The notes below the pieces were generated by a model, which saw only the letters and a program-made list of their open reading frames with translations, was not told the DNA's origin and did no database searches. From positions 288,001 to 352,000 of the forward strand of contig JAXCHI010000004.1 in NCBI GenBank assembly GCA_033977065.1: a stretch of DNA of 64,000 nt, given 5' to 3'. The position numbers were made by a program, and so were the translations under genes. Shown piece by piece: positions 4,060-59,724 of this stretch. Each line of letters begins with the position of its first letter. The first letter of the stretch is position 1. Origin of the DNA: Candidatus Algichlamydia australiensis. Lineage in GTDB: Bacteria > Chlamydiota > Chlamydiia > Chlamydiales > JAJFMI01.

Positions 4060-4105
4060 AAATCCCTCTTTCCATATGAGGAGAAAGGAGGTAACAACTT
4101 AATTT
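4060..4105 (-). repeat. Degenerate arm of palindromic element family A
   Basis: AAATCCCTCTTTCCATA...GGAGAAAGGAGGTAACAACTTAATT resembles 51662-51705. Confidence 0.55.
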
Positions 4106-4196
4106 TTAAAATCTGAGTGCAAGCCGTGCTTGAGTTTTTTTAGGTAGTTTTTTTAATAGAATCCTGATAAAATCATTTGCTAGACAGGAGAATACC

Positions 4197-5282
4197 ATGT
4201 TAAATCCGCTAAAGTTAACAAATGATTTTACTCCAGCCCTTAAAAAGCCTTTGGAGTCTTTTTTTCCAACTTTTCTCAAGACAGCTAAAGTGGCACCGCT
4301 TGTAATCAACATAGGCTTTACAGGTCTTAACTTGTGTAGTCAAAGTAAGCAAATTTTCGCGTTCTCTTTAGCTACAACTCTCTTTTCCTCATATGCCATA
4401 ACATCAAAAAACACTTACGTAAATGCGGCAGCAGTTACTCTCACAATTGTGAATCTTGCTCTTTCCTGTTTTCCAAAATCTTTCGGGGTAAGTCACCAGC
4501 CACCAAAAAATAGGCAAATAGAAGATCAGCAAACTGAAAACCAAATGAGAACAACAGAAGGGTGGTTTGCTGATATTGAGGAATTTATGCCCAAAGGAGA
4601 AAACATAGACGAAGGAAAAGCTGCAAAATTTCAAAAGTTTATCAATCGCCTCAATCCAACAGAGAAGTTAGAATATTTTCTAGCAGCATTGAGTAACGGG
4701 TTTGAAGAAGAAGCAGTAAAAATTCTTGGGGTTGATTGGTTTGGGGATGAAGAGAACGTAGCCGATCTATTTACTCGCCTCTTAGATAAAGCGTATCAAA
4801 GAGAACACAGCCTGGAAGTCATCACTTCTTCTATTAAAACAATATTGGAACAACTGGTTTCTAATAAAGATTCCATTTTCGATATTTTGAAGAATAACGA
4901 AGAGTTTTGTAATAAGTTCCATGGATTGATAGAAGAGCTAGAAATAGATTGTATAGATGGAAGTGGTACACGCAACTTAAGTGCTAAAGAAATAAAAGAA
5001 AATGAAGATTTCGTCATAAGCTCTTTGAATCTCTTTAAATTTAAACAAGAGGATTATAAATTTTCCATTGTTAAAGCTGTTCTAGTGCATAAATGGAGAG
5101 TGCTAGAAAAAATCTTTGAACTTAAGCCAGATTTAGTTTTTGAAAAAGATGTTCTTAATATATTTTTTCACCTTGATGAAGATTCTGAGTTGAGGCAGAA
5201 GGCATTTGCTCATTGGGAAAAGGGTACTGATGAGCAAAAAGAATCGTCGAAAGAAATCATGAATCGCCGTTCTAAAAAATAA
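4197..5282 (+). CDS. Hypothetical protein, tandem family 1
   Basis: 361-aa ORF with AGGAG RBS; KVAPLVIN, KLEYFLAAL and HWEKGTDEQK match the 2596 ORF. Confidence 0.8.
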   Translation: MLNPLKLTNDFTPALKKPLESFFPTFLKTAKVAPLVINIGFTGLNLCSQSKQIFAFSLATTLFSSYAITSKNTYVNAAAVTLTIVNLALSCFPKSFGVSHQPPKNRQIEDQQTENQMRTTEGWFADIEEFMPKGENIDEGKAAKFQKFINRLNPTEKLEYFLAALSNGFEEEAVKILGVDWFGDEENVADLFTRLLDKAYQREHSLEVITSSIKTILEQLVSNKDSIFDILKNNEEFCNKFHGLIEELEIDCIDGSGTRNLSAKEIKENEDFVISSLNLFKFKQEDYKFSIVKAVLVHKWRVLEKIFELKPDLVFEKDVLNIFFHLDEDSELRQKAFAHWEKGTDEQKESSKEIMNRRSKK

Positions 5283-5300
5283 AGTTTTGCTACTCATTTT

Positions 5301-5378
5301 TTAGAGATTGCTGAAGACGAAGCTGAAAAGCTAAAGATCGTTGACGATGTAGTGATCTTCATTAAATAAAAAATGTAA
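5301..5378 (+). pseudogene. Relic of the acpP 3' end
   Basis: Translates LEIAEDEAEKLKIVDDVVIFIK* versus Acp[23 protein letters not shown] (2408 onward). Confidence 0.9.
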
Positions 5379-5475
5379 ACTTATTATTTAAATCTGGAAA
5401 AAGCAATTTTTAGGAGGGTATTTCTTGTTTTTTTAGTATTGTCTTGATATAATATTAATATATTTAAAATTATAT

Positions 5476-6390
5476 ATGATTGATTCAATAAGTTTGGTAA
5501 AAAATTATTTAATTCGTTGGATTCCTTCTCCTACCACACATCTAACATGTGCGGTATTTAAAAAAGTGGCAGAAACATCACCACTAATAATTAATGGTTG
5601 CATCTCCTGTAAAAGCTTAGATAGTAAAAAATTTACTTTTTCACTCTTTTCTACTCTTGTTTCGCCTCTATTTTACTGCAATAACAGCTATGCAAAAGGG
5701 TTTATTCTCCTGCTGACGGTAACGAATCTACTGTTTCATAATTTTTTTACAGGTAGCCAAGCAAAAACAAATTTTGTCTCTAAACCTGCGGTTCCTAAAA
5801 AAAATGAGGGGATAGGACAGGCCGGTGTAGATCAAATAGGCACTGTTGGGGTAGTCAGACTTTCTCGATCAGAAACGAATTCTGTCTCTAAACCCGCGAT
5901 CCTTGAAAAAAATGAGGGGACAGATAAAAATTCAGAACCAAATAAGGGGATAGGACAGGCAGATCCAAAAGATCTTTTCTCTGAGAGTGAGAAAGAAATT
6001 TTGAAACAGATTGATCCGTCACGTTTTGAACAATTTTTTAATGGTGAAATCACCGAGGCTGAGAAGCAAGTAGTTTTCGATTTTAATAGAAAAACAAATA
6101 ATGCTTTATTCAATCGATTTTTAGTTCAACTTTTCAAGTATAGAGATGGGTATCCCTACCAAAATAGTTTCAGCTCAGAGTCAGAACTTCCTACTAATTT
6201 AGATAGTTTGATCTGTTCATACGATCACGACAAATTTGCCACAGAAGAAGAGCGAAAAAGAATCTTTAGCAATACAAGATCCTTTGTAGAGAAATTTATT
6301 CACACTCGACTCAAAGGGCTGGATGACTACGAAGAAGTTATTGCTCAATCAGTAGAGAATGCTGATTGGATGGAACAGCTAATTAAGTGA
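5476..6390 (+). CDS. Hypothetical protein, tandem family 1 (divergent C-terminus)
   Basis: 304-aa ORF; KKVAETSPLIING...FTFSLFSTLVS...NNSYA N-terminal module matches the two upstream ORFs. Confidence 0.75.
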   Translation: MIDSISLVKNYLIRWIPSPTTHLTCAVFKKVAETSPLIINGCISCKSLDSKKFTFSLFSTLVSPLFYCNNSYAKGFILLLTVTNLLFHNFFTGSQAKTNFVSKPAVPKKNEGIGQAGVDQIGTVGVVRLSRSETNSVSKPAILEKNEGTDKNSEPNKGIGQADPKDLFSESEKEILKQIDPSRFEQFFNGEITEAEKQVVFDFNRKTNNALFNRFLVQLFKYRDGYPYQNSFSSESELPTNLDSLICSYDHDKFATEEERKRIFSNTRSFVEKFIHTRLKGLDDYEEVIAQSVENADWMEQLIK

Positions 6391-6917
6391 TCATTGACAA
6401 GGCCAACAGCCTGCATAAATGAGTAAATTATAGTGGGTCCAACAAAGGCCATACCGCGCTTCTGTAAATCTTTTGCTATCGCAGTGCTAATGTCTGTTTT
6501 GCAAGGGACATCTTGAGAGTTTTTCCACTTATTGACAATAGGTTTATAGTCGACATACTTCCATAGATAAGAATCAAATGAGCCAAACTCTTTCTGAATT
6601 TTAAGAAAAATTTGTGCGTTTTGGCGAGCACTAAAGATCTTTCGTCTATTGCGAATAATTGCAGGATTTAAGATGAGGTTCTCAAGATCTTGATCAGACA
6701 TTTTTGCTACAGTTTCTGGATCAAAGTTATGAAAGTGTTTCCGGTAAGCTTCTCGTCTTTTCAGTATGAGTTCCCAGTTTAAACCTGCTTGAGCGCCTTC
6801 TAAAACTAGCATTTCAAAAAGGTGTCTGTCATCGTGAACAGGGATACCCCACTCTTCATCGTGGTACTTGGCGTACAATTCTTTTCCGGGGCCATCCCCA
6901 AAGCATCGTTTTTTCAT
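6345..6917 (-). CDS. tag: DNA-3-methyladenine glycosylase I
   Basis: KRC, YHDEEWG, LEGAQAGLNW, IIRNRRKI, FVGPTI, GLVNDH motifs. Confidence 0.95.
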   Translation of the reverse strand: MKKRCFGDGPGKELYAKYHDEEWGIPVHDDRHLFEMLVLEGAQAGLNWELILKRREAYRKHFHNFDPETVAKMSDQDLENLILNPAIIRNRRKIFSARQNAQIFLKIQKEFGSFDSYLWKYVDYKPIVNKWKNSQDVPCKTDISTAIAKDLQKRGMAFVGPTIIYSFMQAVGLVNDHLISCSIQSAFSTD

Positions 6918-10881: not shown

Positions 10882-11045
10882 ATGAACCTATCCAACTAAA
10901 CATGCTTTTGCCTTTTTCCAGATTTTTGGCTGGATTTTGAGCTATTTTTTCAAACAACTTAATTAAGTTGTTTTCAAAAAGATCCCAAAATCCTTCTCAA
11001 AACTGAGAAAAAATTTCAAAAGCAGCTTTAGTTGGATAGGTTCAT
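10882..11045. mobile_element. 164-bp palindromic MITE-like element (family B)
   Basis: Perfect 19-bp terminal IR ATGAACCTATCCAACTAAA / TTTAGTTGGATAGGTTCAT; central palindrome AAACAACTTAATTAAGTTGTTT. Confidence 0.75.
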
Positions 11046-12870: not shown

Positions 12871-12872
12871 TT

Positions 12873-12989
12873 CGTATCCTTCTCGCTTCGCAAAATCGAA
12901 AAACGTTCGCCACGCCGTGTTATCTACACTGTCGCGGCGAACGTTTTCCGATTTTGCTTTGCGATAAGAATCCGCTAGGCCGCTTCGCG
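12873..12989 (+). repeat. Long-hairpin intergenic element (family C), copy 1
   Basis: About 100-nt imperfect hairpin plus tail CCGCTAGGCCGCTTCGCG; second copy at 31396-31511. Confidence 0.85.
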
Positions 12990-13013
12990 CATGTAAAGGG
13001 GAATTATTTTGAG

Positions 13014-16904: not shown

Positions 16905-16922
16905 ACAGAACTTTGCCTCTTT

Positions 16923-16986
16923 TGACTATTTTGCATGCTATTGCAAAATAGTCATGACTTTTCCGCAATAGCTTGCGGAAAAGTCA
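16923..16986. repeat. Doublet of two 32-nt perfect hairpins (family E, REP/REPIN-like)
   Basis: TGACTATTTTGCA-TGCTAT-TGCAAAATAGTCA directly followed by TGACTTTTCCGCAA-TAGC-TTGCGGAAAAGTCA. Confidence 0.9.
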
Positions 16987-17081
16987 ATTGAAAACATTTG
17001 GTTCAGAGTTCTAAAAAATTCAAGTTACCACGAAAAATCGATTGAATTTTAATTCGAAGACATTCTCTAAACTTAAGTTCT

Positions 17082-19229: not shown

Positions 19230-19267
19230 TAAGGAAGGACTGAACAATCTGGTTCAGTCCTTCCTTA
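19230..19267. repeat. Perfect 16-bp hairpin; collapsed member of family D
   Basis: TAAGGAAGGACTGAAC-AATCTG-GTTCAGTCCTTCCTTA; ends match 59453-59622. Confidence 0.85.
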
Positions 19268-31383: not shown

Positions 31384-31395
31384 GAAGATTTTTTT

Positions 31396-31511
31396 CGGGT
31401 CCATCTCGCTGCGCCAAATCAAAAAACAGTCGCTAAGCCGTGTAATTACACTGTCATAGCGGCTGTTTTTTGATTTTGCTTTGCGATATGAACCCGCTAG
31501 GCCGCTTCGCG
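31396..31511 (+). repeat. Long-hairpin intergenic element (family C), copy 2
   Basis: Homologous to 12873-12989 including the CCGCTAGGCCGCTTCGCG tail. Confidence 0.85.
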
Positions 31512-31944: not shown

Positions 31945-32014
31945 GGCTTTCCCTCCTTTGCAACATCTTAATAAAAAAATATATCAAAGTGAGAGTTTTA
32001 TAAAAAAGAAAAAA

Positions 32015-41268: not shown

Positions 41269-41305
41269 TTTTCAGACTTTTTCAAAAAAAATATTATAAT
41301 ATCCC

Positions 41306-41378
41306 TAAAGCCAATCAATTGTCCCATTTTTAGCTGCAAATAAATTTTTTTAAGTTGGACCTTAGGACCTTCGCTCAT
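41306..41378 (-). pseudogene. Relic of the uvrA 5' end
   Basis: Translates MSEGPKVQLKKIYLQLKMGQLIGF versus UvrA MSESPKIQL[QKVSVHNL]KKVSLELKPGQLIVF. Confidence 0.88.
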
Positions 41379-41435
41379 AGAGGAAGTATAAGAGATTTCT
41401 GTACTTTTATGCGAATTTAGATTATACTACTTCTT

Positions 41436-43004: not shown

Positions 43005-43168
43005 TTTTCAGATTTCCTAAAAAATATTTTAATATCCCTAAAGGCAATCAACTTTCCTAGATTCAATTATAACGAAAGTTAGTGAATTCAGATCAGAAGA
43101 GCTTTAATCCTATTGGAAGTATTGGGAATCTCTATACTTTATTACAAGTTCATGTTAAAATGTTCTCT

Positions 43169-44125: not shown

Positions 44126-44194
44126 ATTGCCATTCTGTAACCTAGAGGATCTTCCGCTTCAGATTACAGTTTTTTGTATAGTATTTGTTAGTTC

Positions 44195-44240
44195 AACTGA
44201 AGTTGCTACCCAGTTTCTCCTATAGAGAGGGGGATTTTTT
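44195..44240 (+). repeat. Arm of palindromic element family A
   Basis: AACTGAAGTTGCTACCCAGTTTCTCCTATAGAGAGGGGGATTTTTT matches reverse complement of 51661-51705. Confidence 0.8.
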
Positions 44241-44340
44241 CTTTGCATATTCTCCGCAGATAATTAATCATATTAAATAATTGAATTCTTGTAACTTATC
44301 GCTTTTTTAGTTAAAATATTCCCATAACAAGGTTACTCCT

Positions 44341-45033: not shown

Positions 45034-45034
45034 A

Positions 45035-45739: not shown

Positions 45740-45748
45740 AGACTTAAG

Positions 45749-46471: not shown

Positions 46472-46525
46472 AATTCTGAATAGAAGCAAAAAGCGTTTTC
46501 TGTAATTAGCTCAAAAGTCTGTTTA

Positions 46526-46746
46526 GGGGTGTTCTCTTAATTTATGAATTTGAGGGGTGGTTTTCTTTTTAGAAGAAATTTATTATAGAGGGTAAAAGCA
46601 GCTTGATAAAACTCAAGTTACTACCTAGTCTCTCCAGAAGGGGATGGGGGTAGCAACTTGAGTTTGATAAAATCGGTGAAATCTGAATAGCAAATCTACT
46701 CAGAAAGAAAACCGAACAGCAAGTTCAAAAATTCAGAGAACACCTC
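46526..46746. mobile_element. About 220-bp imperfect palindrome (family F) with a family A element nested near its centre
   Basis: GGGGTGTTCTCTTAATTTATGAA...GGTTTTCTTT pairs with AAAGAAAACC...TTCAAAAATTCAGAGAACACCTC. Confidence 0.7.
46611..46663 (+). repeat. Short form of palindromic element family A
   Basis: ACTCAAGTTACTACC...GGTAGCAACTTGAGT flanked by TTGATAAA direct repeats. Confidence 0.88.
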
Positions 46747-46748
46747 AA

Positions 46749-48548: not shown

Positions 48549-48570
48549 TTCTATTTGTTAAGCTAATTGC

Positions 48571-49020
48571 ATGTTTGTACAGTCGTATGTCGAATTAAAT
48601 GAAACAGAAAGTCTTGTCTATTATTTAAAAACAGCAGATGATTTTGATCCCACATCTCAAAGTGCTGTAGCGGCACTTTGGACTGCTTTCGAAAAGAGTT
48701 ATTTTGACGTTCAGGATGTTTTAATGAAGCAAGGCGTTGCAAATGCTGATTATCGAGATGATGAAGGAAATCACCCTATTCATCTTTTAGCAGAAAAGGG
48801 CAATACCTCTGTAGGCGTCTGTTTACAAAATGGAATTCCTATAGATCTTGAAAATAGTGCTGGAATGACACCTCTACAATTGGCTGTTGCCCATAACCAG
48901 AAAGATATGGTTCAGTATTTGATTAATAATAAGGCGAAGATTCCTGATAATGAGACAGATCAAAAGATCCAAGAGCTGCTTCAGGAAAAACCGCATCACT
49001 TTTGTTGCCACCTTTTATAA
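48571..49020 (+). CDS. Ankyrin-repeat protein with C-terminal CaaX-like motif
   Basis: GNHPIHLLAEKG and GMTPLQLAV...MVQYLINNKA ankyrin repeats; ends FCCHLL*. Confidence 0.85.
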   Translation: MFVQSYVELNETESLVYYLKTADDFDPTSQSAVAALWTAFEKSYFDVQDVLMKQGVANADYRDDEGNHPIHLLAEKGNTSVGVCLQNGIPIDLENSAGMTPLQLAVAHNQKDMVQYLINNKAKIPDNETDQKIQELLQEKPHHFCCHLL

Positions 49021-49072
49021 AAATTGTGTAGAGTGGCCCTATAAATCTAATTTTTCCTTATTACTTTCTTTT

Positions 49073-49633
49073 ATGGGATTTGCAAATATACAGTCACTCG
49101 TTTTAGTTCGTCACGGTGAGGGCGAGCATAATGTAAAAGGGATCTGGTCGCAAACGGCCCCTCTCACAGAGGTGGGTGTGGAGCAAGTTTTTCAGACAGG
49201 TAAAGATCTTTTGGAGCAGGGTCTCTCGAGTGAAAAAGTTTCTGTTGTCTATGTTTCACCTATGCCTCGTACGCGTCAGACAGCGCAGGCGCTTATTGAT
49301 TCTGGAGTCATTCGAGAGGAGCAGCTTGTTTTTGATGAGCGGCTGGCTGAGATCGATGCTGGCTCACTCGAGGGAGAAAAATTTCGCCCTTGGGGAGATG
49401 CCGATCTTTGGGATTTGCCTTTTGCTGAAGAGGTCGGTGGGGAGACGCTAGCGCAGGTGCGCGATCGTATCGGAAGTTTTCTTTCTGAGCTCTCTAAGCA
49501 GGAATTTGAACACCATGTTTTTGTGATTTCTCACGGCTCTCCGTTACGAGAGTTGCTGGGGCTACTTGGGCATGAGCGCATCAAGTTGAATACAGCAGAA
49601 GCCAAAATCATCCCAAAACCGCCAAAGCACTAA
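49073..49633 (+). CDS. Histidine phosphatase (phosphoglycerate mutase family)
   Basis: LVRHGE, SPMPRTRQTA, L.EIDAG, ISHG. Confidence 0.92.
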   Translation: MGFANIQSLVLVRHGEGEHNVKGIWSQTAPLTEVGVEQVFQTGKDLLEQGLSSEKVSVVYVSPMPRTRQTAQALIDSGVIREEQLVFDERLAEIDAGSLEGEKFRPWGDADLWDLPFAEEVGGETLAQVRDRIGSFLSELSKQEFEHHVFVISHGSPLRELLGLLGHERIKLNTAEAKIIPKPPKH

Positions 49634-50273
49634 TTCCGGCTGTTTCAGCTCGTAAAACATGCCTGCTCAGGCGCACCCCTGTAGCAAATTCACGAAGTTG
49701 TGTAAGTTCATTTTCAGAAAAACCTCCTTCGGGTCCGATGTAAATCGTCGTATTTCCTTTGGCAGCAGTGAGAGGAGGCGCATTAGGATCGAGATCACCA
49801 AAGAGTGCTTTGCCTTTAGCCTCTGGAAAGGTAGAAAAAACTTCAATTTTGGGAAGGTAGAGGCGCTTGCACTGCTTAAGTGCACTGATGGTAGCGGTTT
49901 CAAGTCTCGCAAGATGGTTAGAGGAGAGTTTTTGTCTTTCTGAGTGATCGGAAGCAAAGAGGTGAAAAGCAGTAGCCCCGAGCTCTGTTCCCTTTTCAAT
50001 GAGCCACTCCAAGCGGCTCTGTTTGATGAGGGCTGCTGCCAGAACAATTTTGGGTGCGGGTTCCTGCTGCTTTTCGCAGGCGGTAATTTCTACAATTGTT
50101 TCGTGTTTATTTGAGGAGAAGAGAGTGCCTTGCGCGAGAGTTCCTTTGCCATCAACAAGTTCAAGATGATCTCCTTTTTTGCCGCGCATCACACGCGTAA
50201 GGTGATGAGCTTCTGCTCCCGATAGGATAGACTTTCCCTTCTGCAGTTTTTCTGTCACATAATAGCGATTCAT
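49608..50273 (-). CDS. rsmE: 16S rRNA U1498 methyltransferase
   Basis: HHLTRVMR, EKGTELG, IGPEGGFS, VLRAETA. Confidence 0.95.
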   Translation of the reverse strand: MNRYYVTEKLQKGKSILSGAEAHHLTRVMRGKKGDHLELVDGKGTLAQGTLFSSNKHETIVEITACEKQQEPAPKIVLAAALIKQSRLEWLIEKGTELGATAFHLFASDHSERQKLSSNHLARLETATISALKQCKRLYLPKIEVFSTFPEAKGKALFGDLDPNAPPLTAAKGNTTIYIGPEGGFSENELTQLREFATGVRLSRHVLRAETAGISALAVLG

Positions 50274-51466
50274 ATATGTTCTTCCCTGCATATTGCGAGT
50301 TTCAAGATCTTATCAAAGGAGGGCTCTTGTGCTAAGATGAGTTTGGGGGTAGCAAGTTCTATTAAATCTTTTTTTGTTAGTACTTCAAAAGCCGCTTGGC
50401 GTTTCCAATGACGTGTAATGTTTTCTTTAGAAAAATTAAAGACAAGTTTAAATCGGTAATCTTTGCGGTAGGGATCGTATGCCAGGTGTTCAAAGCCGTT
50501 TTGAGGTGTGGGGCACATAAGAGTGAGAAAAGCGCGCGGGTAGATGGTGCGAAAGGTTTGCATCCAAGGCTCCCATTTAGGTGCAATGATGAGAATGGAA
50601 TCGTGGCGAAAGCGGTAGTAGACGTTTTTTGGGCTCTCTTGCTTCCAGCGATTGTGTTGCCAGAGCCACTGCTCGGGGCAGGTTTTGATAGAAGTTTCAA
50701 AGATTTGTAGCGCCTCCTTCATCATGCGCTCAGTCTCTTCATTCATCGGTTTGGATTTATCAGGCCAAATAGGATCACTGTAGGTGATTTCGTAGGTGAC
50801 GCCTACGCGTTTTGTAGTAGCGACCATGATGGGGCAACCGGTTTTATAGGAGAGGAGTGCGGGCGCTGTTGAGGTAAAGGCGCGTCTGCCAAGAAAAGAG
50901 CTGGAAAAGTCGCTATCGGGAAAGCCTTGGTCACCAACGATTCCAAGGAACTTTCCAGCTTTTAGACCGCGCAAGCCCTCTTTGATCGCAAGCTTAGGTG
51001 GGACAATTGTGCCGCCAAACTTTTCGCGCATCTGTACGATCCACTCATAAACTTTTTTCTGTTTAATAGGCCTTCCAATAGCAACACCGGGCATGCGTTG
51101 GGTACCTTCTAAAAAAAGAACTTCCCAGTTGGCTTGGTGACCGCAGAAGAAGATGATACCTTGCCCTTTAGCAATGAGCGCAGCAGCTGGTTCTGGATTT
51201 GTGCAGCACGCCCACTTAAAGCTTTTTCTATGGGCAAATTTGGGATACTCAAGAGCGCAAGTGAGGAGGTTGGCAAAGGAAGCTTTGGCTATACGTCGAA
51301 TCTCTTTAGGGCTCAGCTTAAGGTCTGTAGCGAGGGCGAGATTGGAGAGTGCGCGCTTGCGCCACTTAGGAATGGCGCAGTAGGCAATGGGGGCGAAGCC
51401 GTGGCTTAAAAGATTGATAAGCCATTGTGGGGTAATCGCAAGAGGTGTGGTTAGGAGTTTAAACAT
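50270..51466 (-). CDS. htrB: Lipid A biosynthesis acyltransferase (HtrB/LpxL family)
   Basis: GHQANWE, IVGDQ, FLG..A.T...PA, PEQWLWQHNRWK. Confidence 0.88.
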   Translation of the reverse strand: MFKLLTTPLAITPQWLINLLSHGFAPIAYCAIPKWRKRALSNLALATDLKLSPKEIRRIAKASFANLLTCALEYPKFAHRKSFKWACCTNPEPAAALIAKGQGIIFFCGHQANWEVLFLEGTQRMPGVAIGRPIKQKKVYEWIVQMREKFGGTIVPPKLAIKEGLRGLKAGKFLGIVGDQGFPDSDFSSSFLGRRAFTSTAPALLSYKTGCPIMVATTKRVGVTYEITYSDPIWPDKSKPMNEETERMMKEALQIFETSIKTCPEQWLWQHNRWKQESPKNVYYRFRHDSILIIAPKWEPWMQTFRTIYPRAFLTLMCPTPQNGFEHLAYDPYRKDYRFKLVFNFSKENITRHWKRQAAFEVLTKKDLIELATPKLILAQEPSFDKILKLAICREEHI

Positions 51467-51468
51467 GG

Positions 51469-51492
51469 TAGGGTAAAATCGATTCTACCCTA
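51469..51492. promoter_or_regulatory. 24-bp palindrome overlapping the putative -10 of htrB
   Basis: TAGGGTAAAATCGATTCTACCCTA (one mismatch); minus-strand TTGAAA-18-TAGAAT. Confidence 0.55.
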
Positions 51493-51545
51493 TAGGCAGT
51501 TCTATTTTCAATGGATAGAATACAAAACAAGGGAGTGTCTTCGAA

Positions 51546-51704
51546 ACTCAAGTTGCTACCCCTTTCCCCCTTTGGAGAGACCCTTTTTGCGATCTACTTA
51601 GTTTAAAATTTCAGAAATGCTTGATAAACATTCCTTCAATTTGAAACGAAACATCTCATCAAAAATCCCTCTCTCCATAGGAGAAACTGAGTGGCAACTT
51701 GAGT
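51546..51704 (-). mobile_element. Long form of palindromic element family A
   Basis: ACTCAAGTTGCTAC / GTGGCAACTTGAGT terminal IRs flanked by TTCGAA on both sides. Confidence 0.82.
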
Positions 51705-51769
51705 TTCGAATTAAAATAGAGTCCAAAAATTGGCCAAAATAATTGAAAATCTTTCTCTTGATGAGGAGT

Positions 51770-52178
51770 CTAGTACTCTGTAACAGAAAATTTTAGCATT
51801 ATTTTTACGTCAAAGCCTTCGCATAAAAATGGATCCCAAACGTGAAAAGTAAAGCGATTGTATGTGATTGAAAAAGCTGTCTAGACCTTGCAAAGTTTTC
51901 TGCAAAACAAAAAAAACAGCCGCGCAAGCGACGTGAAAGGGGCCCCTCCCGAAACAAAGTGGAGGGTGGGGAATGAACGCGCGATGCGCTCGATGGCTTC
52001 AGATTGGCTTTGAAAAATTGCGGTGCAGGAGGAAGAAGTAGTGCTTTGCACGGTTTTCCGACGAAACGCAATTTGGCATGCCAAGATGAAGCTCAAAGGG
52101 CAGCGGGGATTTGCCCGACTGTCTCTATTGGCTGTTTTTTTAAATTAAACACTAAGATTTTCTGTTACAGAGTACTAG
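51770..52178. mobile_element. 409-bp MITE-like element (family G)
   Basis: 27-bp IR CTAGTACTCTGTAACAGAAAATTTTAG / CTAAGATTTTCTGTTACAGAGTACTAG (one mismatch), CTAG at both ends, no transposase. Confidence 0.85.
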
Positions 52179-52253
52179 GTTCCAAAAATAAAATCATGTT
52201 TTCGAAAATTAAAGATTGTTGATAAGATTGAGCTGATCAAAGTGGAGGTAAGC

Positions 52254-52955
52254 ATGAAAAAGAAGATTACTGTAGCGGTACTTTCAGTACCATTTCTATT
52301 TGTCCCTCTTGCTGCGGATTCCGTACCAAGTGAAAAAAGCATGGTAGAAAACTTTTGGGAGCTTATTGGTCTTCAAACAGAGAGTTCTAAAAAGGAAGTT
52401 GGGTTGCTCATTCAAGAAATTGCTGAGCTGAGACAAAAAAATGAGAAGTTGCGCATGCGTGATGAATGGTTGCGTAATCGATTAAAAGGATTTGAAGAGG
52501 GGTCTTGTGAAGCGCTTAAAGAAAATAGGTCTCTAAAGACCCGATGTGGAGAATTAGAAATGATAAATGCAGACCTTATAAATCAATTACATAAGCAGGA
52601 TCTTGAACTTAACAAATTGAATTTTATCGGTTGCGAGATAGGATCTTCTTCTGTGGAAGATATGACAGATGAAGAGCTTGAGAGGGAGTGTAAAGAGCTT
52701 AGCAAGAGAAGAAGGGCGCTTATCGGAAAGCACAAGGAGATCTGGATAAGGCATAGGGATATCTCTAATGAGTTATTTTTAAGAGAGTGTGAAGATATGG
52801 ATTTGCAAGAGGAGCGCGAAGGAATGAAAGAGCAAATCAAGAAGCTAGAAAAGAAAATTGCAAAGAACAAAGCAGTTTATGATACGCAAGAGGCCTTGTT
52901 TAAAGGCGAGATAGAGAGTCTTCAATCAAAGCTTCAGGAGGAAGAGACGCAGTAA
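52254..52955 (+). CDS. Hypothetical exported coiled-coil protein
   Basis: GGAGG RBS, signal peptide, E/K/L heptad-rich. Confidence 0.75.
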   Translation: MKKKITVAVLSVPFLFVPLAADSVPSEKSMVENFWELIGLQTESSKKEVGLLIQEIAELRQKNEKLRMRDEWLRNRLKGFEEGSCEALKENRSLKTRCGELEMINADLINQLHKQDLELNKLNFIGCEIGSSSVEDMTDEELERECKELSKRRRALIGKHKEIWIRHRDISNELFLRECEDMDLQEEREGMKEQIKKLEKKIAKNKAVYDTQEALFKGEIESLQSKLQEEETQ

Positions 52956-52957
52956 AC

Positions 52958-54037
52958 TTATCTCACAAATTGAAAACTTGAGTTTTCTAAACATATTTTA
53001 GTTAATGCGCTTAACTGGTTTTCGAATGTATACGATTTCACTGTATTACGGATCTTTTTGGCGCGCTCTTCTGTTTTAGGACGGGTAAGAGCTTTCTGTA
53101 GGGCTGCGAGAAGAGAGTCTTGTGAAGTGAGGTCCTCAATAATAATCCCTGTTTCTGGAGTGAGGACTTCATGACCACCATTGGTTTTTGACGTTACGAC
53201 AGTAAGGCCCATAGCGAGGGCTTCGACGGTGGTATTGGCGAAGGGGTCGTAGAGTGTGGGAAGAACGAGGCAGTCAGCTTTTTGGTAGAAGGTTTGGATG
53301 TCAACACGTTTTCCAAAAAATTGGACTTGGTTTTGAATTTTTAACTTTTCTGCGAGTTGTAGGTAGTGAGTGAGGTTGCGATCATAGCCAACAACTGAGA
53401 GTTGCCAATCTTTTTGGGAGAGGTGGGCAAGTGCGAGCAGAAGCAGGTCAAGACCTTTGCGTTTAAAGCCAGAACCCACAAAGAGAAAATGAAACTTTTC
53501 ATTGGATTTATAGGAGGGAGTCAGCTCGTTCCACTCAACTCCGTTGTAGATTACACTGATTTTTTCCTCAGGAATACTGTAGTGCTGCAAAATCTCTTGT
53601 TTGACCATTTGTGAGTTTGTAATGAGTCTTTTCAAGCGGGGATTTTCAAACGATTTTTTCTCAAGATCTAGTAGTAGACGATGGAGAGGGTTAAGAGGAA
53701 AGGTAAGGGTTTTGTAGAGGGGCTCAAAGCGTTTACGATGATTCAAATAGGCGGCATGGCAGCCGTTGCCTGCACGAATATGGGTTGCCATGCGAATGCG
53801 GTCCATTGTGAAGATGCAGTTGTAGCTGCTTCGGGCAAGATGGTCACTGCAGGCGCGGTCAAAATTTTTGATATTTTGGAATGAGAGAGGTTTTCTTTTA
53901 AGGTGCAGACTATCTGCTGTAATGAGGGTAACACGGCAGCCTGCGTCTTCAAAAGCTCTCTTGATTCGCCGCGCTTGCTTTTCTAATCCTCCTGCAAAAC
54001 CAAAAGAGGTTTTAATCAGTGCAACAGAGGTCTTCAT
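52958..54037 (-). CDS. Glycosyltransferase family 4 (RfaG-like)
   Basis: GGLEK, IYNGV, FVGSGFKRKG, YDPFANTTVEALAMG. Confidence 0.92.
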   Translation of the reverse strand: MKTSVALIKTSFGFAGGLEKQARRIKRAFEDAGCRVTLITADSLHLKRKPLSFQNIKNFDRACSDHLARSSYNCIFTMDRIRMATHIRAGNGCHAAYLNHRKRFEPLYKTLTFPLNPLHRLLLDLEKKSFENPRLKRLITNSQMVKQEILQHYSIPEEKISVIYNGVEWNELTPSYKSNEKFHFLFVGSGFKRKGLDLLLLALAHLSQKDWQLSVVGYDRNLTHYLQLAEKLKIQNQVQFFGKRVDIQTFYQKADCLVLPTLYDPFANTTVEALAMGLTVVTSKTNGGHEVLTPETGIIIEDLTSQDSLLAALQKALTRPKTEERAKKIRNTVKSYTFENQLSALTKICLENSSFQFVR

Positions 54038-55271
54038 GAGCTTCGTTAATCGTAATCATTTTTTCGTGTTGGTAGATGTCGAGTTCAAATTTTGAGCTGT
54101 CAGCTCGGTAGAGCTGGAAGCGGTTCATGTAGCTGCGAAAGCGATTGCGTAGATACTCCTCGCGCATTTTAGGGTTAGCAAAGCCACCCTTGTCCTGCAT
54201 GCTATTTCCCATGGCCAGCGTAATGTAGCGGTTTTCTAGTTCACGCGGGTTGATGAATTGTACACTCCAATCAAAGCTATTGTGGTGGCCGGGACCAACA
54301 ATCACGGTAATTTCAAGGTGGTTTTGTACAGTTTGTAAAAAGAGTTCGCTAACCCCTTTTGTATACAAATCTTCTTTGATCAGTTTTACCCCATTGACCT
54401 CTTTCACAAGTGGAGATGTTGCAAGTTGTAATTTCCCTTTTTTCAAGGTACGTGCAGAGCGCAGGGGGTAATAGAGATTGATCTGAATAGGTGCTTTTAC
54501 AGGAAGGAGTTCGGTGCGTATGAAGTCGATGTGTAGAGCTTCATTTTTTTTGTCAGCAATATCAATAGGGGCAGCTGAGACATCAGGAAGGTAGATCTGT
54601 TTCCAGTGTTGAGGTATGTCAAAGGAGATAACGTCAGTCTGGCCATTATGTTCGCTCACTTTTAGCTCATCGAGCTCACCATGAGTGATATCCCCTAAGT
54701 TAAAGGTAAGCTTTACACCGCGCGATTTGTAGCGTGAAATGATATCTTCAGGTCCGCGCAACATAACATGGGCGCGATAGGGCCAAACATCAACAAATTG
54801 GTATCCTTTCGGAGAATCTCCCTTTGGCTCTGTAATGACTACCGGAATTTTTTCACGGATAAGCCTCTTTGGTTTCAGGGCAAGTGTAACGGGGTTTACG
54901 CGCTTGATTCCTGTGAGGTTGGAGTTGGGATCAGTTGCTACAACATTTTTTTTATTGATTTTTTCAATCCACTCAGAAGTATGGCCATGCCCATCAATAA
55001 GAATTTCTAGATCTTGCTCGCTGATTTTGTCTAAAAGTATCCTGTTACCAGTGATATTTAGATCTAATCGACGAGAGAGTACACCTCCAGTATTCATTCC
55101 TTCGACTGTGATACCTTCAGGCAAGTTGACAATGCGAACACCAACATTGTGAAGCATTTTTGTTTTCGTTAGCGATTGGTTTACCACGAACCAAACAATA
55201 ACTGCGAGAATAAGGGAGAGGATCTTTCTCTGCCAATTAGCGATAAAAATCTTATTACACAACTCTTTCAT
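54012..55271 (-). CDS. ybbR: YbbR/CdaR-like diadenylate cyclase regulator
   Basis: NWQRKILSLILAVIVWFVV N-terminal TM; ATGA-coupled downstream of dacA. Confidence 0.8.
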   Translation of the reverse strand: MKELCNKIFIANWQRKILSLILAVIVWFVVNQSLTKTKMLHNVGVRIVNLPEGITVEGMNTGGVLSRRLDLNITGNRILLDKISEQDLEILIDGHGHTSEWIEKINKKNVVATDPNSNLTGIKRVNPVTLALKPKRLIREKIPVVITEPKGDSPKGYQFVDVWPYRAHVMLRGPEDIISRYKSRGVKLTFNLGDITHGELDELKVSEHNGQTDVISFDIPQHWKQIYLPDVSAAPIDIADKKNEALHIDFIRTELLPVKAPIQINLYYPLRSARTLKKGKLQLATSPLVKEVNGVKLIKEDLYTKGVSELFLQTVQNHLEITVIVGPGHHNSFDWSVQFINPRELENRYITLAMGNSMQDKGGFANPKMREEYLRNRFRSYMNRFQLYRADSSKFELDIYQHEKMITINEAHEDLCCTD

Positions 55272-56065
55272 CTGTTGAGGAGTGCCTTGAGTTTAAAAGT
55301 TGCTTTTGTTTTTGGTTTGACCGGAGGATTGAATACGCTTCGTATAATTCCGCTAAAACGATCAATTTTTACACCGCGGGTCATAATGCCGTCACGCGCA
55401 ATGGAGACTTTTCCTGTCTCTTCAGAGATTACGATAACAAGAGCATCACTAATTTGGCTAATACCAAGACCTGCTCTATGACGCGTTCCCATCAAACGCG
55501 AGAGGTGTCCAATATCTTCTGCAAGTGGGAGGATTACAGCGGCAGCAACAATAGAGAGATCGCGTACGATGATCGCTCCATCATGTAAGGGGGTTGTCGT
55601 TTTGAAGATGGATTCAACTAATTCTGATGAGAAGGTCGCATTGAGCATCACGGCTTTTTGTGCGTATTCATCTAAAGTATCTTCATTTTCAATAACAATA
55701 ATCGCACCAATGCGTTTGTCTGCCATGCGATAGGTTGAAGTAGCAAGCTGGTCTAAAAAACGGTCAAACTCTGTGATCTCTTTGTAACGTTTCCCTTTGA
55801 GACTTAAGCGAGATAGCGCAACGCGCAGTTCGGGCTGAAAAATAATGAGTATGGCGATAACGGCAACACTAGAGACGTTGATCATGAGTTGATGAAGAAC
55901 AGGGAAATTCAATAGAGAAGAGAAAGCATAGACACTTAAGAACGCAAAAAGACCGAGAATAAGGTCCATCGATCTTGTATTCCAAAAGAAAGAGAGGATG
56001 TAGTTGATCATGACTGCAATGATCAGGATTTCGATGAATGGAGTAATGTGGGTGTAGAAATACAT
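55268..56065 (-). CDS. dacA: Diadenylate cyclase
   Basis: Three TM segments, FQPELR, PLHDGA, GTRHRA, SEETG. Confidence 0.96.
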   Translation of the reverse strand: MYFYTHITPFIEILIIAVMINYILSFFWNTRSMDLILGLFAFLSVYAFSSLLNFPVLHQLMINVSSVAVIAILIIFQPELRVALSRLSLKGKRYKEITEFDRFLDQLATSTYRMADKRIGAIIVIENEDTLDEYAQKAVMLNATFSSELVESIFKTTTPLHDGAIIVRDLSIVAAAVILPLAEDIGHLSRLMGTRHRAGLGISQISDALVIVISEETGKVSIARDGIMTRGVKIDRFSGIIRSVFNPPVKPKTKATFKLKALLNR

Positions 56066-56141
56066 CTTAATTCGATCTTACATGAAGCTGTAAAAAAAAA
56101 CATCATTTGTGCATGATGGAAAAAAAATTTTGGTACTACTA

Positions 56142-57509
56142 ATGGACGTTGTAATTCTAGCTCGAATTCAATTTGCGATGACGATCGCATTTCACTATCT
56201 TTTCCCCCCATTAAGCATTGGCCTCTCATTAATGCTTGTCATCATGGAAGGGCTCTATCTCAAAACAAAGAATCCTCTTTATAAACGGATGACCCAATTC
56301 TGGATGCGCATCTTTGCTATCTCTTTTGCGCTCGGAGTTGCGACAGGAATTGTCATGAGTTTTTCTTTTGGAACAAACTGGGCTCGCTATTCGCGTTTTG
56401 TTGGAGATGTCTTTGGAAGCGCCTTGGCAGCAGAGGGAGTTTTCGCCTTTTTTTTAGAGGCTGGATTTATTGGTCTAATGCTTTTTGGTTGGAACCGTGT
56501 GAAGCCAGGAGTGCACTACTTTTCGACAATTATGGTCAGTCTGGGGGCACATTTTAGCGCCGTTTGGATCGTGATTGCTAACTCTTGGATGCAAACACCC
56601 GCTGGATTCAAAATTGTGGGTGAAGGACTCGATGCAAAAGCGATCATCACAGACTTTTGGGCGATGGTCTTCAACCCCTCTTCTATGGAGCGGCTCTTCC
56701 ACGTAATTATGGGTTGTTGGCTTACAGGAAGTTTTATTATTGTCTCTGTCGCTGCTTACTATATTATCAAAAGGCGCCATCTTGACTTTTCTCGGGCTAC
56801 AATGAAAATTGGGTTAATTACAGGGATGGCCGGACTTTTGTTACAGCTCTATTCTGGAGATCAGACGGCTCGCGGTGTAGCAAAGAACCAGCCAGAGAAG
56901 CTCGCAACTCTTGAAGGTGTTTTTAAAACAGAAGAGTACACCCCATTTAATCTGATAGGGTGGGTCGATATGACGAAGAAGAAAGTTTATGGAATTAGTG
57001 TTCCTGGTGGCTTAAGCTTCCTTGTCTACCATAAATTTAAGCCAGCTGTTCCAGGACTTGATAATTTCCCAGAAAAGGATTGGCCTAATGTACCGGTGGT
57101 ATTTCAAACTTATCATATTATGATCATGATGTGGGGAGCGATGTTTTTACTCGCAATGCTTGGCATCATTTATTGGAGAAGAGGGACCCTTTGGAATTCT
57201 AAGTGGACGTTGCGCGCTATGGTACTCTCTATTGGTGCCCCTTATATCGCCAATCAGGCGGGTTGGTTTACAGCAGAGATGGGTCGCCAACCATGGATTG
57301 TTTACCACCTACTCCGTACAGCTGAAGGAGTTTCAAAATCTGTTGCTAGCAATCAAATTTTGGGATCGATCCTTATGTTTATTGTGATCTATTCGTTTCT
57401 TTTTGCCCTTTTTATCTACCTCATGGACCACAAAATTAAAAAAGGTCCTGATGAAGAGGGAGCTGATGAAAAATTGTATTCTGATCCGATTCTAGAAGGA
57501 GGAAACTGA
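56142..57509 (+). CDS. cydA: Cytochrome bd ubiquinol oxidase subunit I
   Basis: ARIQFA...FHYLF, FGTNW, NSWMQTP, QPEKLA, GRQPW. Confidence 0.97.
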   Translation: MDVVILARIQFAMTIAFHYLFPPLSIGLSLMLVIMEGLYLKTKNPLYKRMTQFWMRIFAISFALGVATGIVMSFSFGTNWARYSRFVGDVFGSALAAEGVFAFFLEAGFIGLMLFGWNRVKPGVHYFSTIMVSLGAHFSAVWIVIANSWMQTPAGFKIVGEGLDAKAIITDFWAMVFNPSSMERLFHVIMGCWLTGSFIIVSVAAYYIIKRRHLDFSRATMKIGLITGMAGLLLQLYSGDQTARGVAKNQPEKLATLEGVFKTEEYTPFNLIGWVDMTKKKVYGISVPGGLSFLVYHKFKPAVPGLDNFPEKDWPNVPVVFQTYHIMIMMWGAMFLLAMLGIIYWRRGTLWNSKWTLRAMVLSIGAPYIANQAGWFTAEMGRQPWIVYHLLRTAEGVSKSVASNQILGSILMFIVIYSFLFALFIYLMDHKIKKGPDEEGADEKLYSDPILEGGN

Positions 57510-58537
57510 TGAGCTTAGAACTCTTACAAAATCTTTGGTATTTAGTGCTCTGTGGAGCTGTGGTGTTGTACACAATTTTGGACGGTTTTGATATGGGAGT
57601 AGGTGCTCTCTATCTCTTTCCAAAGGCTGATCGAGATCGCCGAATTTTTTTGAATGCGATTGGCCCTGTTTGGGATGGCAATGAAGTCTGGCTTGTCATT
57701 GTAGGGGGAGGTCTCTTCGCTGGATTCCCCGCAGTCTACGCTTCAGTCTTTTCTGGCTTCTACAACCTTCTTATGCTCTTTCTAGCGGGTATTATTTTTC
57801 GCGCAGTGGCGATTGAGTTTCGATCTAAACACATCTCTAAACGTTGGCGTAGCATGTGGGACTACTTCTTTAGTTTTTCGAGCATCGTTATCGCTTTTGG
57901 ACTAGGAGTTGTTCTCGGAAATCTGATTCTTGGAGTGCCTCTCGATAGTAATGGGGACTTTATTCAGGAATTTGGATACATTGTGCGCCCATACGCAATC
58001 TTAGTGGGTGTTTTCTCAGTTGCTCTCTTTACCATGCATGGTGGCATCTACCTTTTAATGAAAACAGAAGATGAACTGCACGAGCGCCTGCGCTCATGGA
58101 TGCGTTACATTATTCCCGTGTTTTTTATTTTGTACCTTGCTGTCTCTTTCATGACCTGGATTGAAGTGCCTTCGATGGTACAACCGATGTTTGACCATCC
58201 CTACCTTTTTGCTGTACCTACTTTGACACTACTTCTTTTTGCTAACGTTTGCCGACAAGTGTACAAGCGCAATGATGGCTGGGCCTTTCTCTCCTCATCT
58301 GGAGCGATTGCGACCTTTTTTGCTCTTTATGGGATTGGAAATTATCCTGTCATCATTCGCTCAACTGTCGACCCAGTAAACAATAGTTTGACAGTTTTTA
58401 ACGCCTCTTCATCAATCGAGACGTTAAAAGTGATTATGATTGTGGTGCTCATTGGCTTGCCTCTTGTCTTTGCTTACGGCATTTGGGTGTACAAGATTTT
58501 TAGAGGGAAGGTTAAGCTTGACGCCAACAGCTATTAG
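57509..58537 (+). CDS. cydB: Cytochrome bd ubiquinol oxidase subunit II
   Basis: LDGFDMG, IGPVWDGNEVWL, FRGK end. Confidence 0.97.
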   Translation: MSLELLQNLWYLVLCGAVVLYTILDGFDMGVGALYLFPKADRDRRIFLNAIGPVWDGNEVWLVIVGGGLFAGFPAVYASVFSGFYNLLMLFLAGIIFRAVAIEFRSKHISKRWRSMWDYFFSFSSIVIAFGLGVVLGNLILGVPLDSNGDFIQEFGYIVRPYAILVGVFSVALFTMHGGIYLLMKTEDELHERLRSWMRYIIPVFFILYLAVSFMTWIEVPSMVQPMFDHPYLFAVPTLTLLLFANVCRQVYKRNDGWAFLSSSGAIATFFALYGIGNYPVIIRSTVDPVNNSLTVFNASSSIETLKVIMIVVLIGLPLVFAYGIWVYKIFRGKVKLDANSY

Positions 58538-58554
58538 AAAAAAGTTATTTGGAC

Positions 58555-58650
58555 TCACCTTGACATGCCAAATAGCGTTTCAGAGGAAGGCCGTGCAGAG
58601 CACTGCTCCTTCCTCTTGCACCGCAATTTTTCTAGTAGTCAATCTGAGCC
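58555..58650 (-). repeat. Copy of the internal core of the family G element
   Basis: Reverse complement aligns with 51995-52089 (CATGCCAAAT..GCGTTTC...CCGTGCA.AGCACT...TGCACCGCAATTTTTC). Confidence 0.85.
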
Positions 58651-58696
58651 CACTAGTCGCTTTACGTAGAGAGGATTTTTTTGAAAATTATAGGGA

Positions 58697-59140
58697 CTAT
58701 TTCGTTGGATCGTGAACTGTAAGCAGTTTACCTTTTCCATATTCGAGTATTTTATTGTCACATGTTACTAAGGCTGCGTTTTGTTCTTGGGCTGAAGCCA
58801 TAAGTATTCTATCAACAGGATCACCGTGAACTTCTCCGGCTAGGCGCGTGCTTTGTATGGCAATTTTTGGAGTTAGCTCACAAATGTTAATTCCAGCTGA
58901 ATCTAACGCCTGGTCAACCCATTCCATAGGGTCCATATCTAAGCTGAGTCTTTTTTTCTCGACGAGCATGCCTATCTCCCAGACAGACATAGGAGAAACA
59001 AGTACTCTTTGCTCTAATAAAGCAACTTTTAAGCTATCCCGAAAATGTTTTTTAAGCATGGAGTGTCCTGTCATTGTCCAAATTAAAATGTGGGTATCCA
59101 AAATAATTTTATTTTTTTTGATTTCTTTAATTACTGGCAT
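58697..59140 (-). CDS. vapC: VapC-family PIN toxin
   Basis: IILDTHILIW, SPMSVWEI, HGDPVDRIL, LVTCD. Confidence 0.92.
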   Translation of the reverse strand: MPVIKEIKKNKIILDTHILIWTMTGHSMLKKHFRDSLKVALLEQRVLVSPMSVWEIGMLVEKKRLSLDMDPMEWVDQALDSAGINICELTPKIAIQSTRLAGEVHGDPVDRILMASAQEQNAALVTCDNKILEYGKGKLLTVHDPTK

Positions 59141-59357
59141 CCCACACCTCATCAATTGGATTAATGATATCGCCATGATAATGGACCGTTCCCTTCAGTT
59201 TGCCAAATATTTCTTCTTCTTTTTCGTCGATTGGCCCGATTTGAGCTATCGGCACGTTTCGTTTTGTAATCACAATTTTTCTACGAGTGCGGCTAACTCT
59301 ATCCATCACCTTTAAGCATTCTGCTTTAAATTTGCCTGCTGGCATTTTTTCTGACAT
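59127..59357 (-). CDS. Phd/YefM-family antitoxin
   Basis: AGKFKAECLKVMDRV...IVITKRNVPIA; overlaps toxin start. Confidence 0.92.
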   Translation of the reverse strand: MSEKMPAGKFKAECLKVMDRVSRTRRKIVITKRNVPIAQIGPIDEKEEEIFGKLKGTVHYHGDIINPIDEVWDASN

Positions 59358-59380
59358 AATATAAACCTTTTTTAAAGACT

Positions 59381-59416
59381 ATGGTCATAATACCATGGTC
59401 ATGAATAAAAAATCAA
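59381..59416 (-). promoter_or_regulatory. Toxin-antitoxin promoter/operator
   Basis: TTGATT-18-TATTAT (TGn) with two near-palindromic ATGGTCAT boxes at 59381-59388 and 59395-59402. Confidence 0.6.
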
Positions 59417-59452
59417 ATTTTTAAAACTCACTAATTATCAAAACCTTAAATG

Positions 59453-59622
59453 TTAAGGAAGGTTTGAATAACTGCTGTACTGATAGCATGAGGCGAAAAT
59501 TCTAAAAAAAAGTTATTTGGAGACCGTAAATGACTGGATATAGTTATTAGAGGTTGAAAATAATCTTTTCTAGGATTTTTCGGCCGTAAGATCTACGGAT
59601 GAGTTGTTTAGACCTTTCTTAA
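59453..59622. mobile_element. Degenerate 170-bp palindromic element (family D)
   Basis: TTAAGGAAGGTTTGAATAACT / AGTTGTTTAGACCTTTCTTAA outer IR; GAAAATTCTAAAAAAAAGTTATTT / AAATAATCTTTTCTAGGATTTTTC inner IR. Confidence 0.65.
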
Positions 59623-59672
59623 AGTGGAAATTGTTGTAGAAAAACTGTTTTGTTTAAAAGAGGTTATTCAAT

Positions 59673-59724
59673 ACTCAAGTTGCTACCCAACTTATCCAGA
59701 AGGGGAAGGGGTAGTAACTTAAGT
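59673..59724 (+). repeat. Short form of palindromic element family A
   Basis: ACTCAAGTTGCTACCC...CCAGAAGGGGAAGGGGTAGTAACTTAAGT, colinear with 46611-46663. Confidence 0.85.

Follow-up and report, generated by a model that had tools for sequence, protein, structure and literature searches.

The interiors of MITEs are usually regarded as decayed filler. Similarity between type II prokaryotic MITEs and insertion sequences (IS) is confined to the ends, at least in the part of the published account drawn on here (PMC10969869), and Nezha has its matching IS in another species (sections of PMC3184786). MITEs of 150–170 bp are also listed for other bacteria (PMC3184786, Table 1, as excerpted), so that the size may be general; the same excerpts give about 155 bp for bcr1 and about 168 bp for YPAL/RU-2. 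In Paramecium, the length of the IES is held near the DNA persistence length, which the relevant passages of PMC3464196 read as a looping requirement.

Candidatus Algichlamydia australiensis carries about ten families of non-coding small elements amounting to 2.1% of its genome, a multi-family MITE set apparently undescribed in chlamydiae. Families A, B, D, F and G, from the 64,000-nucleotide stretch analysed here (the window), and H, I and J, from elsewhere in the genome, are MITEs: they are multi-copy elements of less than 500 bp without a transposase gene, with terminal inverted repeats, family-specific target duplications of 2–9 bp, and both filled and empty sites. The palindromes of the window are mostly multi-copy across the genome, 13 of 16 element queries finding 7–99 loci each by BLAST (the left end of F found 4, and E and a 32-bp D copy 1 each), while 80 shuffled queries gave 3 chance hits. 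Full-length copies have on average 46–68 symmetric base pairs vs 4.9 (maximum 31) in control windows, which comprised 120 of 382 intergenic windows. The places listed in an earlier, sequence-only reading of the window all hold the palindromic sequences described there, above chance by both controls. Families B, G and H seem to have been active recently, their median nearest-neighbour identity being 0.99–1.00. An assembly artefact was rejected for the long G element, at which read depth was 100–127 vs 8.5–8.7 on unique DNA in run X1, a run that may be the source; an empty-site joint was sought in two read runs of one study and not found. At the Rfam gathering score the sole match in the whole window was the SRP RNA, none of the elements being matched, and 44000–60000 gave no match at E<=0.1.

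Family A is represented by a 159-bp MITE (51546..51704) with a 6-bp target duplication and ends that match a 959-bp IS982 element, and by a 52-bp deletion derivative (59673..59724). A 53-bp derivative (46611..46663) with an 8-bp target duplication lies inside the family F element (46526..46746), which is 160 bp without its guest (160+53+8 = 221; four nested insertions in all sum exactly); the ends of F resemble IS5-type elements of 857–870 bp, and no target duplication was seen for this copy. Two further family A sites, which had been taken for palindromes, proved to be single-end remnants: a decayed one at 4058..4104 (boundaries approximate, 7 loci at E<0.01) and one at 44196..44240. Family B contributes a 160-bp MITE (10884..11043) with a 2-bp target duplication and an end match to an 877-bp IS5-family element, family D a 162-bp MITE of subfamily D2 (59457..59618) with a 4-bp duplication and a 32-bp deletion derivative (19233..19264), and family J a single-end remnant on the minus strand (17000..17067, inner boundary approximate) that was absent from the earlier list. 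The long G element (51774..52174, 401 bp) has IS630-type ends and a 4-bp duplication and is a mosaic of a G left arm (its bases 1–47), half of an old H element (48–108), a 233-bp core module homologous to family C (51909..52141, minus strand) and a G right end; a free fragment of the core lies at 58552..58660 (plus strand). Family C itself has two plus-strand copies: 12872..12990, which lacks a terminal inverted repeat and has a deleted remnant at the same site of the sister genome G001, and 31395..31511. Empty orthologous sites were seen in G001 for the 159-bp A element and for the 32-bp D derivative (a 36-bp gap without element).

Terminal inverted repeats, flanking direct repeats, internal-deletion derivatives, nesting and compensatory substitutions, all features of the sequence-only reading, were seen. 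That there are several families is also supported, but the E double hairpin (16922..16987) has one genomic hit and an orthologous site in G001 (89% identity) and falls outside the mobile set, and C and the G core form one superfamily. Its proposal that other palindromes are the preferred targets holds only for G beside G: insertions inside other elements number about 7–8 of 136, not above the 20% of non-coding DNA that elements occupy, and G alone shows a real target preference, for a site beside another G end (10 junctions vs about 3 expected, in a count of G-G junctions).

The target duplications across families are 2, 3, 4, 6–8 and 9 bp, their length going with the IS family, and other chlamydiae have full-size elements of the IS982, IS5, IS630 and IS4 types whose ends match. 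Family A (6–8 bp; duplications in 10/15) is paired with the 959-bp IS982 element (NF033520, 170.9 bits, cut-off 130), B (2 bp; 14/15) with the 877-bp IS5 element, which is in two frames, and I (9 bp; 7/12) with a 1.2-kb IS4 element (NF033591, 234.9, cut-off 152). For G (4 bp; 23/27) the partner is an IS630 element (NF033545, 142.6, cut-off 100), and for H (2 bp; 34/35) a broken IS5 element inside the Candidatus Algichlamydia australiensis genome. In A, B, I and F, 14–20 of the 22 end bases compared are the same in MITE and IS; G and H were compared in separate alignments, and G shares with its IS630 end only the first 10 bases, which counts against that assignment. Ends shared with an IS around an unrelated interior are thus found in A, B, G, H, I and F. 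The transposases of IS982, IS5 and IS4 very probably moved A, B and I respectively, those of the matching IS probably moved G and H, and an IS5-type enzyme more likely than not moved F. No IS partner was found for D or J; for D, none appeared by pattern in 50 genomes, in plasmids or among the loci compared, and DDE_Tnp_1 is absent from G225 although that genome has 111 D ends. Plasmids gave only chance matches to B, A and G, and in viral contigs the end pattern of B met an unrelated hairpin that lacked a second end.

As the earlier reading had it, the window showed no transposase (a Pfam scan of 48 of the 102 listed ORFs, and genome-wide family searches without a match inside it); the genome, however, has four IS5-type transposase genes. 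An intact transposase with matching ends was not found in this 93% complete assembly, in a search that omitted IS110, IS1595, IS3, IS256, IS91 and ISL3. Profiles for RAYT/IS200, IS630, IS701, TnpB and DDE_Tnp_4 had zero matches in the genome, and 79 proteins encoded at transposase loci, used as tblastn queries, recovered only the IS5-type genes already known. Contig C1 is conjugative-plasmid-like; its intact IS5 was rejected as a MITE partner, having no match elsewhere in the genome.

What the families share is a length and a fold, and we found no description of this combination in the literature. Among 136 two-ended copies, 88 are 159–162 bp and 11 are 171–172 bp long, and 40 of 61 copies in other chlamydiae are 158–165 bp; all full-length copies fold back over their entire length. 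D copies hold 160–162 bp although only 84% alike, and most interiors have no detectable mutual similarity, yet they are of the same length; none matches its cognate IS. Neither the shared length nor the interiors common to different ends had been noticed in the sequence-only reading. The difference between 161 and 171–172 bp is one helical turn; lengths of 163–165 and 169 bp in other genomes blur a helical-phase rule. In a wedge model, curvature is strong in B, H and J (0.52–0.61 vs 0.89–0.92; 0/300 shuffles); intrinsic curvature was rejected as a general feature, being missing in D, G, I and one of two A copies.

The G interior occurs in 11 elements in 10 genomes, flanked by different ends, so that this middle probably serves some function in itself. 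In its alignment 29 of 44 pairs are changed on both sides (0/500 shuffles as high; slid controls 5–12), and a C-C mismatch at columns 20 and 111 is invariant in 11/11 rows; these elements were collected through their likeness to the core that carries the motifs, a choice that biases the set towards conserved motifs. In G218 an element with B ends likewise aligns to the arms of J (z = 33). The superfamily of C and the G core has no IS-type terminal ends; terminal inverted repeats with a duplication were not found, and 20 aligned copies show asymmetry between the two ends. Family C has a small GC-rich hairpin at one end and a 15:2 orientation relative to replication. In this genome the orientation bias relative to replication is 59:31 (P = 0.004); it is absent in H (13:17) and was not reproduced in G225 (9:12).

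Our preferred reading, to which we give a probability of roughly 0.55, is that these non-coding MITEs are mobilised in trans by DDE enzymes which visiting IS supply, with the ~160-bp fold-back interior as a reusable DNA scaffold for end pairing. Transposases of visiting IS982, IS5, IS630 and IS4 elements would likely do the moving, supplied by passing IS, for example on contig C1; the ends would be replaced over time as transposases come and go, the long-lived scaffold persisting and likely bringing two ends together. The non-autonomous, trans-mobilised set proposed earlier is supported to this extent, mobilisation itself being read from sequence. For the narrower idea that the interior is selected because, as DNA, it makes the elements more mobile, whether by forming a loop that is already bent and close to the persistence length in size (B, H, J) or an end-juxtaposing hairpin or cruciform, we see about even odds; the curvature of B, H and J was counted in its favor, as was the lack of any gap-type bias (51 co-directional, 24 divergent and 23 convergent, in line with available bases) or transcribed-strand preference. 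A stronger version is rather doubtful: an old, transposase-independent chlamydial scaffold of ~160 bp, with its conserved mismatch and motifs, whose hairpin or bent duplex is read by a host factor; the scaffold would pre-pair any ends, persist over long periods by exchanging them and parasitise passing IS. If true, the middle rather than the ends would define this mobile element, which would also serve as nature's own measurement of the cargo geometry that suits several DDE transposases best.

An RNA-rod fold has been proposed for Correia, ERIC and bcr1, and selection could act on the same MITEs at that level, copies in or near transcripts surviving when they form a compact rod, which is either processed or left alone. 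Among the broken pairs of the G interior, 13 columns have A-C and 3 have G-U, so that the opposite strand retains wobble pairs, family C has the same one-strand bias (11 vs 1, P = 0.006 uncorrected), and bcr1 is transcribed with its structure kept by compensatory changes (PMC3184786, in the sections used). Such selection is nevertheless unlikely: it leaves the single length unexplained and finds no echo in gap type or transcribed strand, G-T is tolerated by single-stranded DNA too, and no significant wobble-strand bias exists within copies of A, B, D1, D2, G, H and I (nor is a general bias significant, chi-square P = 0.066). Alternatively, the interior may have no function, having arisen by fold-back duplication of one end region, with arm-to-arm conversion keeping the symmetry and a few ancestors setting the length. 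The Watson-Crick double changes in A, D1 and D2, which show no strand bias, fit conversion, and several interiors are common to different genomes by descent. Conversion should, however, remove the mismatch that is invariant in the G interior, and neither the single length of mutually dissimilar interiors and divergent D copies nor the lack of a match to the cognate IS is expected, making this quite improbable. Least probable is one undescribed mobiliser (RAYT/HUH-like or RNA-based, as a new system had been suggested) reading the hairpin and moving all families: the common fold and size would suit it, and it may hold separately for C and the G core given the end hairpin, wobble bias, orientation and missing terminal repeat of C, but it does not fit the set as a whole: the ends and duplication of every family indicate an ordinary IS family of their own, PF01797 (RAYT/IS200-type) is unmatched in the one 93% complete genome searched (control positive in 6/14), the one metagenome copy has no transposase beside it, and the core, forming inverted arms within longer elements in G001 and G173, may be a passenger there.

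MITEs, which break genes and assemblies, can thus make up 2% of the DNA in environmental chlamydiae. In these elements the interior lasts longer than the ends and keeps its length, its fold and one mismatch; with matched IS982, IS5, IS630 and IS4 transposases and MITEs identified, it is now testable which features allow a non-autonomous element to be moved well by a transposase that it borrows.

Compared with described systems, as far as the cited excerpts go, the Paramecium IES offer an analogy and not membership, one enzyme and a 10-bp ladder standing against several enzymes and one main peak. Like REP/REPIN-RAYT and the Rickettsia RPE (PMC3733652), the chlamydial elements are dispersed palindromes, and the C/G core carries a short hairpin at its end and stands in inverted pairs in G001 and G173, but in units of 120–230 bp vs the 20–40-bp tetranucleotide-tagged units of REPINs; unlike them, A–J have IS-type ends and duplications, and no tyrosine transposase was found. 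They resemble bcr1 and YPAL/RU-2 in size, folded interior and direct repeats, and bcr1 in compensatory changes; those, however, are single families of one lineage, for which the excerpts do not mention end exchange or a conserved mismatch, and bcr1 folds into two stem-loops where the chlamydial elements form one rod. The closest likeness in these sources is to type II MITEs and Nezha: terminal repeats that an IS also has, target duplication, a non-coding, intergenic sequence with a stable stem-loop, filled and empty sites and a partner IS in another genome. Unlike these, at least eight families of a single genome share one length here although their ends differ, and the same interior recurs between different ends.

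The sites proposed in the sequence-only reading each carry the sequence described there, and profile searches of the genome (1.80 Mb in 7 contigs, 93.4% complete) showed the listed families to be multi-copy, with 31 matches for A, 20 for B, 38 for D1, 36 for D2 (these two counts overlap because of shared ends), 36 for G, 6 for F, 25 for C and 34 for the G core; 80 shuffled queries gave 3 matches. Families H (64 matches), I (17) and J (12) were absent from that list. All families combined occupy 37,414 bp, or 2.1% of the genome, and are missing from contigs C1 and C5. Read depth backs the copy number of the long G, which is a patchwork of pieces of G, H and the core. E has 1 match in the genome and is likely a conserved regulatory site: its two tandem hairpins (window 16922-16987), 89% identical in the sister genome G001 where the flanking genes are ~75% identical, lie directly upstream of an RF-1-domain gene that we take to be ArfB-like, with a terminator-like score on both strands. 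C and the G core, thought to be distinct, can be aligned with each other and form a single superfamily that lacks terminal repeats.

Element ends were set by pairing end motifs family by family, and length and target duplication proved fixed within each family: G measures 161 or 401-403 bp (duplication 4 bp), H 161 bp (2 bp), B 160 bp (2 bp), A 159-160 bp (6-8 bp), D 160-162 bp (4 bp), I 171 bp (9 bp) and J 172 bp (3 bp, seen in shorter J derivatives), while F comes to 160 bp after subtraction of the A copy nested in it, along with the 8-bp duplication that this copy made. The nesting claimed from the sequence is borne out by four insertions that sum exactly to host, insert and duplication, and comparison of filled with empty sites agrees: in G001, a 32-bp D is missing (a 36-bp gap), a 159-bp A and a 401-bp G are both missing together with an adjacent 237-aa ORF (window 52242-52955, no Pfam match), and a stretch of a 162-bp D and a 52-bp A is reduced to 13 bp. 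These gaps and exact sums are transposition footprints. Nearest-neighbor identity is 99-100% for B, G and H copies versus just 84% for D, pointing to bursts at different times. A 52-53-bp A derivative is common to two genomes (window 46611 and 59673; L257 of G242), some copies with a full duplication, and probably arose via deletion between short sub-terminal repeats.

Full-size insertion sequences with the same ends were sought by end pattern in 250 genomes of the order and in 50 selected IS-rich ones, and six families (A, B, F, G, H and I) have an identified partner. Those of I (IS4; G108, G242, G087), G (IS630; G042), B (a two-frame IS5; G183, G030) and A (IS982; G183) have target duplications as expected; the two B-partner frames, scored separately, reach 71.7 and 80 bits, both below the 110 cut-off, and a candidate 888-bp pair with B-type ends lies in G073. 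H has 14 end bases in common with a broken IS5 gene on contig C2, itself split by a B copy, and the F ends resemble IS5-type elements of 857-870 bp. The same end-pattern searches found no partner for D or J. MITE interiors give low local scores against their own partners (20-31, uncalibrated values). In every testable respect, these elements are type II MITEs.

Besides the broken gene, the genome has two frameshifted IS5-type copies, presumably IS903-like, and a single intact IS5; the latter, on C1, was rejected as a partner since its ends match nothing else. C1 (L431, L004) is an 87-kb contig of 37.6% GC with F-type conjugation genes, and the best plasmid matches of its TraU protein are chlamydial; profile searches with all families gave zero MITE matches on it, and it is a plausible route for passing transposases. 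A conserved short hairpin containing the B end pattern is shared by ~100 viral contigs (L064-L183); no second end was found in them, and the match is coincidental.

Other features of the window include a double-length UvrA, which we take to be typical of chlamydiae, a bacterial-type small SRP RNA (32011-32109, minus strand, 63.2 bits) and an intergenic 83% copy (5302-5373) of the 3' end of a small, putatively acyl-carrier-protein-like gene (2207-2488, judged by context). Three tandem leucine-rich-repeat genes (39718-44125, internal repeat 132 bp) have a backward joint (44121 to 44000) in contigs of both sequencing runs containing the DNA (labeled dinoflagellate metagenome), so that the repeat may exceed its assembled length. 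A PIN-domain gene and the short ORF preceding it (58697-59360), probably a toxin-antitoxin pair, lie between a fragment of the G core and a copy of D; the stretch with the PIN gene has an ortholog in G001.

Full-length copies fold as a single rod with 46-68 symmetric pairs versus 4.9 in controls, and arm identity within families is 67-84%. The compensatory substitutions reported earlier were confirmed as Watson-Crick double changes (A 44, D1 59, D2 39, C 29, against shuffle means of 12, 19, 14 and 9), counts that come from related copies and so are not independent. A further 11 genomes contain the short-G interior, bounded there by six or more types of end; TA-containing duplications nearly always flank these elements, which measure ~155-170 bp wherever the automatic boundary reached true ends. 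In an alignment of 11 rows from 10 genomes (two flipped to the common strand; a second G096 copy and two rows with a 10-base insertion dropped from 14), 29 of 44 pairs are altered at both positions, which 0 of 500 shuffles reach, and slid controls give 5-12; the rows were selected by similarity to the core, which favors motif conservation. J arms align with a G218 element bearing B-type ends, and the interiors of D2, I and A also turn up elsewhere among the genomes, each with its own ends. Interiors outlive ends.

G001 has ~25 C-like matches, a remnant at the site of the C copy at 12873, and core modules forming inverted arms within 600-bp elements that have other ends; G173 has core pairs similar to these arms. 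One exact pattern matches 1 of 75 genomes; it also matches a single metagenome contig, where the copy has no adjacent transposase. Riding inside MITEs would account for the young copies. C is oriented 15:2 relative to replication.

Length is shared across families. Among the 136 elements that have two ends and measure 45 bp or more (a set based on chosen end motifs, C left out), 88 are 159-162 bp long and 11 are 171-172 bp long. A detector that uses no motifs picked up 149 fold-backs of up to 260 bp, with 44 in the 160-169 bins and 24 in a second peak at 100-104 that probably represents internal segments of H. Of 61 paired elements below 260 bp in other chlamydiae (20 of them from G225; counted manually from the coordinate lists), 40 fall at 158-165 bp and 3 at 169 bp.

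The proposed preference for other palindromes as targets is unnecessary: ~7-8 of the 136 elements, by our reading of the flags, lie inside another, versus an element share of 20% of non-coding DNA. A scan flagged 12 elements for repeats on both flanks and 22 for repeats on a single flank, several of these flags being self-overlaps or tandem arrays. G-G junctions with one shared duplication are in excess (10 visible versus 2.8-3.6 expected under a rough model, P 0.0007-0.004); mixed in orientation and size, they are separate insertions beside an existing G end.

We prefer the reading that the interior would be a DNA scaffold assisting end pairing. For a DNA role, B, H and J are predicted to be strongly curved (D, G and I are not), and 59 of 90 copies have the weaker-folding strand placed on the leading-sequence strand (P = 0.004; ratios of 8:0 for A, 10:2 for G, 12:3 for B and 14:4 for D, with H at 13:17 and I at 2:4 lacking the bias). 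The bias for D was not reproduced in G225 (9:12; L386-L405), and other causes of orientation bias in IS elements are known (PMC3971601). A wobble bias toward one strand, seen in C and in the G interior, speaks for action at the RNA or single-strand level; against an RNA role, the copies favor neither a type of gap nor the transcribed strand. Neutral arm conversion, which would keep the elements symmetric, is argued against by an invariant C-C mismatch (columns 20 and 111) within the covarying stem of the G interior.

Accessible portions of the literature on chlamydial MITEs, 160-bp MITEs and length constraints hold no description of these families (census tables may list copies); chlamydiae are unmentioned in the main-text portions of the 2024 MITE review and the MITE census, and the available sections of PMC9997750 have no passage on MITEs. 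That census gives a median size of 104 bp across 183,232 genomes (PMC11602168), but several known MITEs measure 150-170 bp (PMC3184786, Table 1), so the ~160-bp peak may not be specific to chlamydiae. The scaffold reading would invoke the same looping logic as the size rule for Paramecium IESs (PMC3464196).
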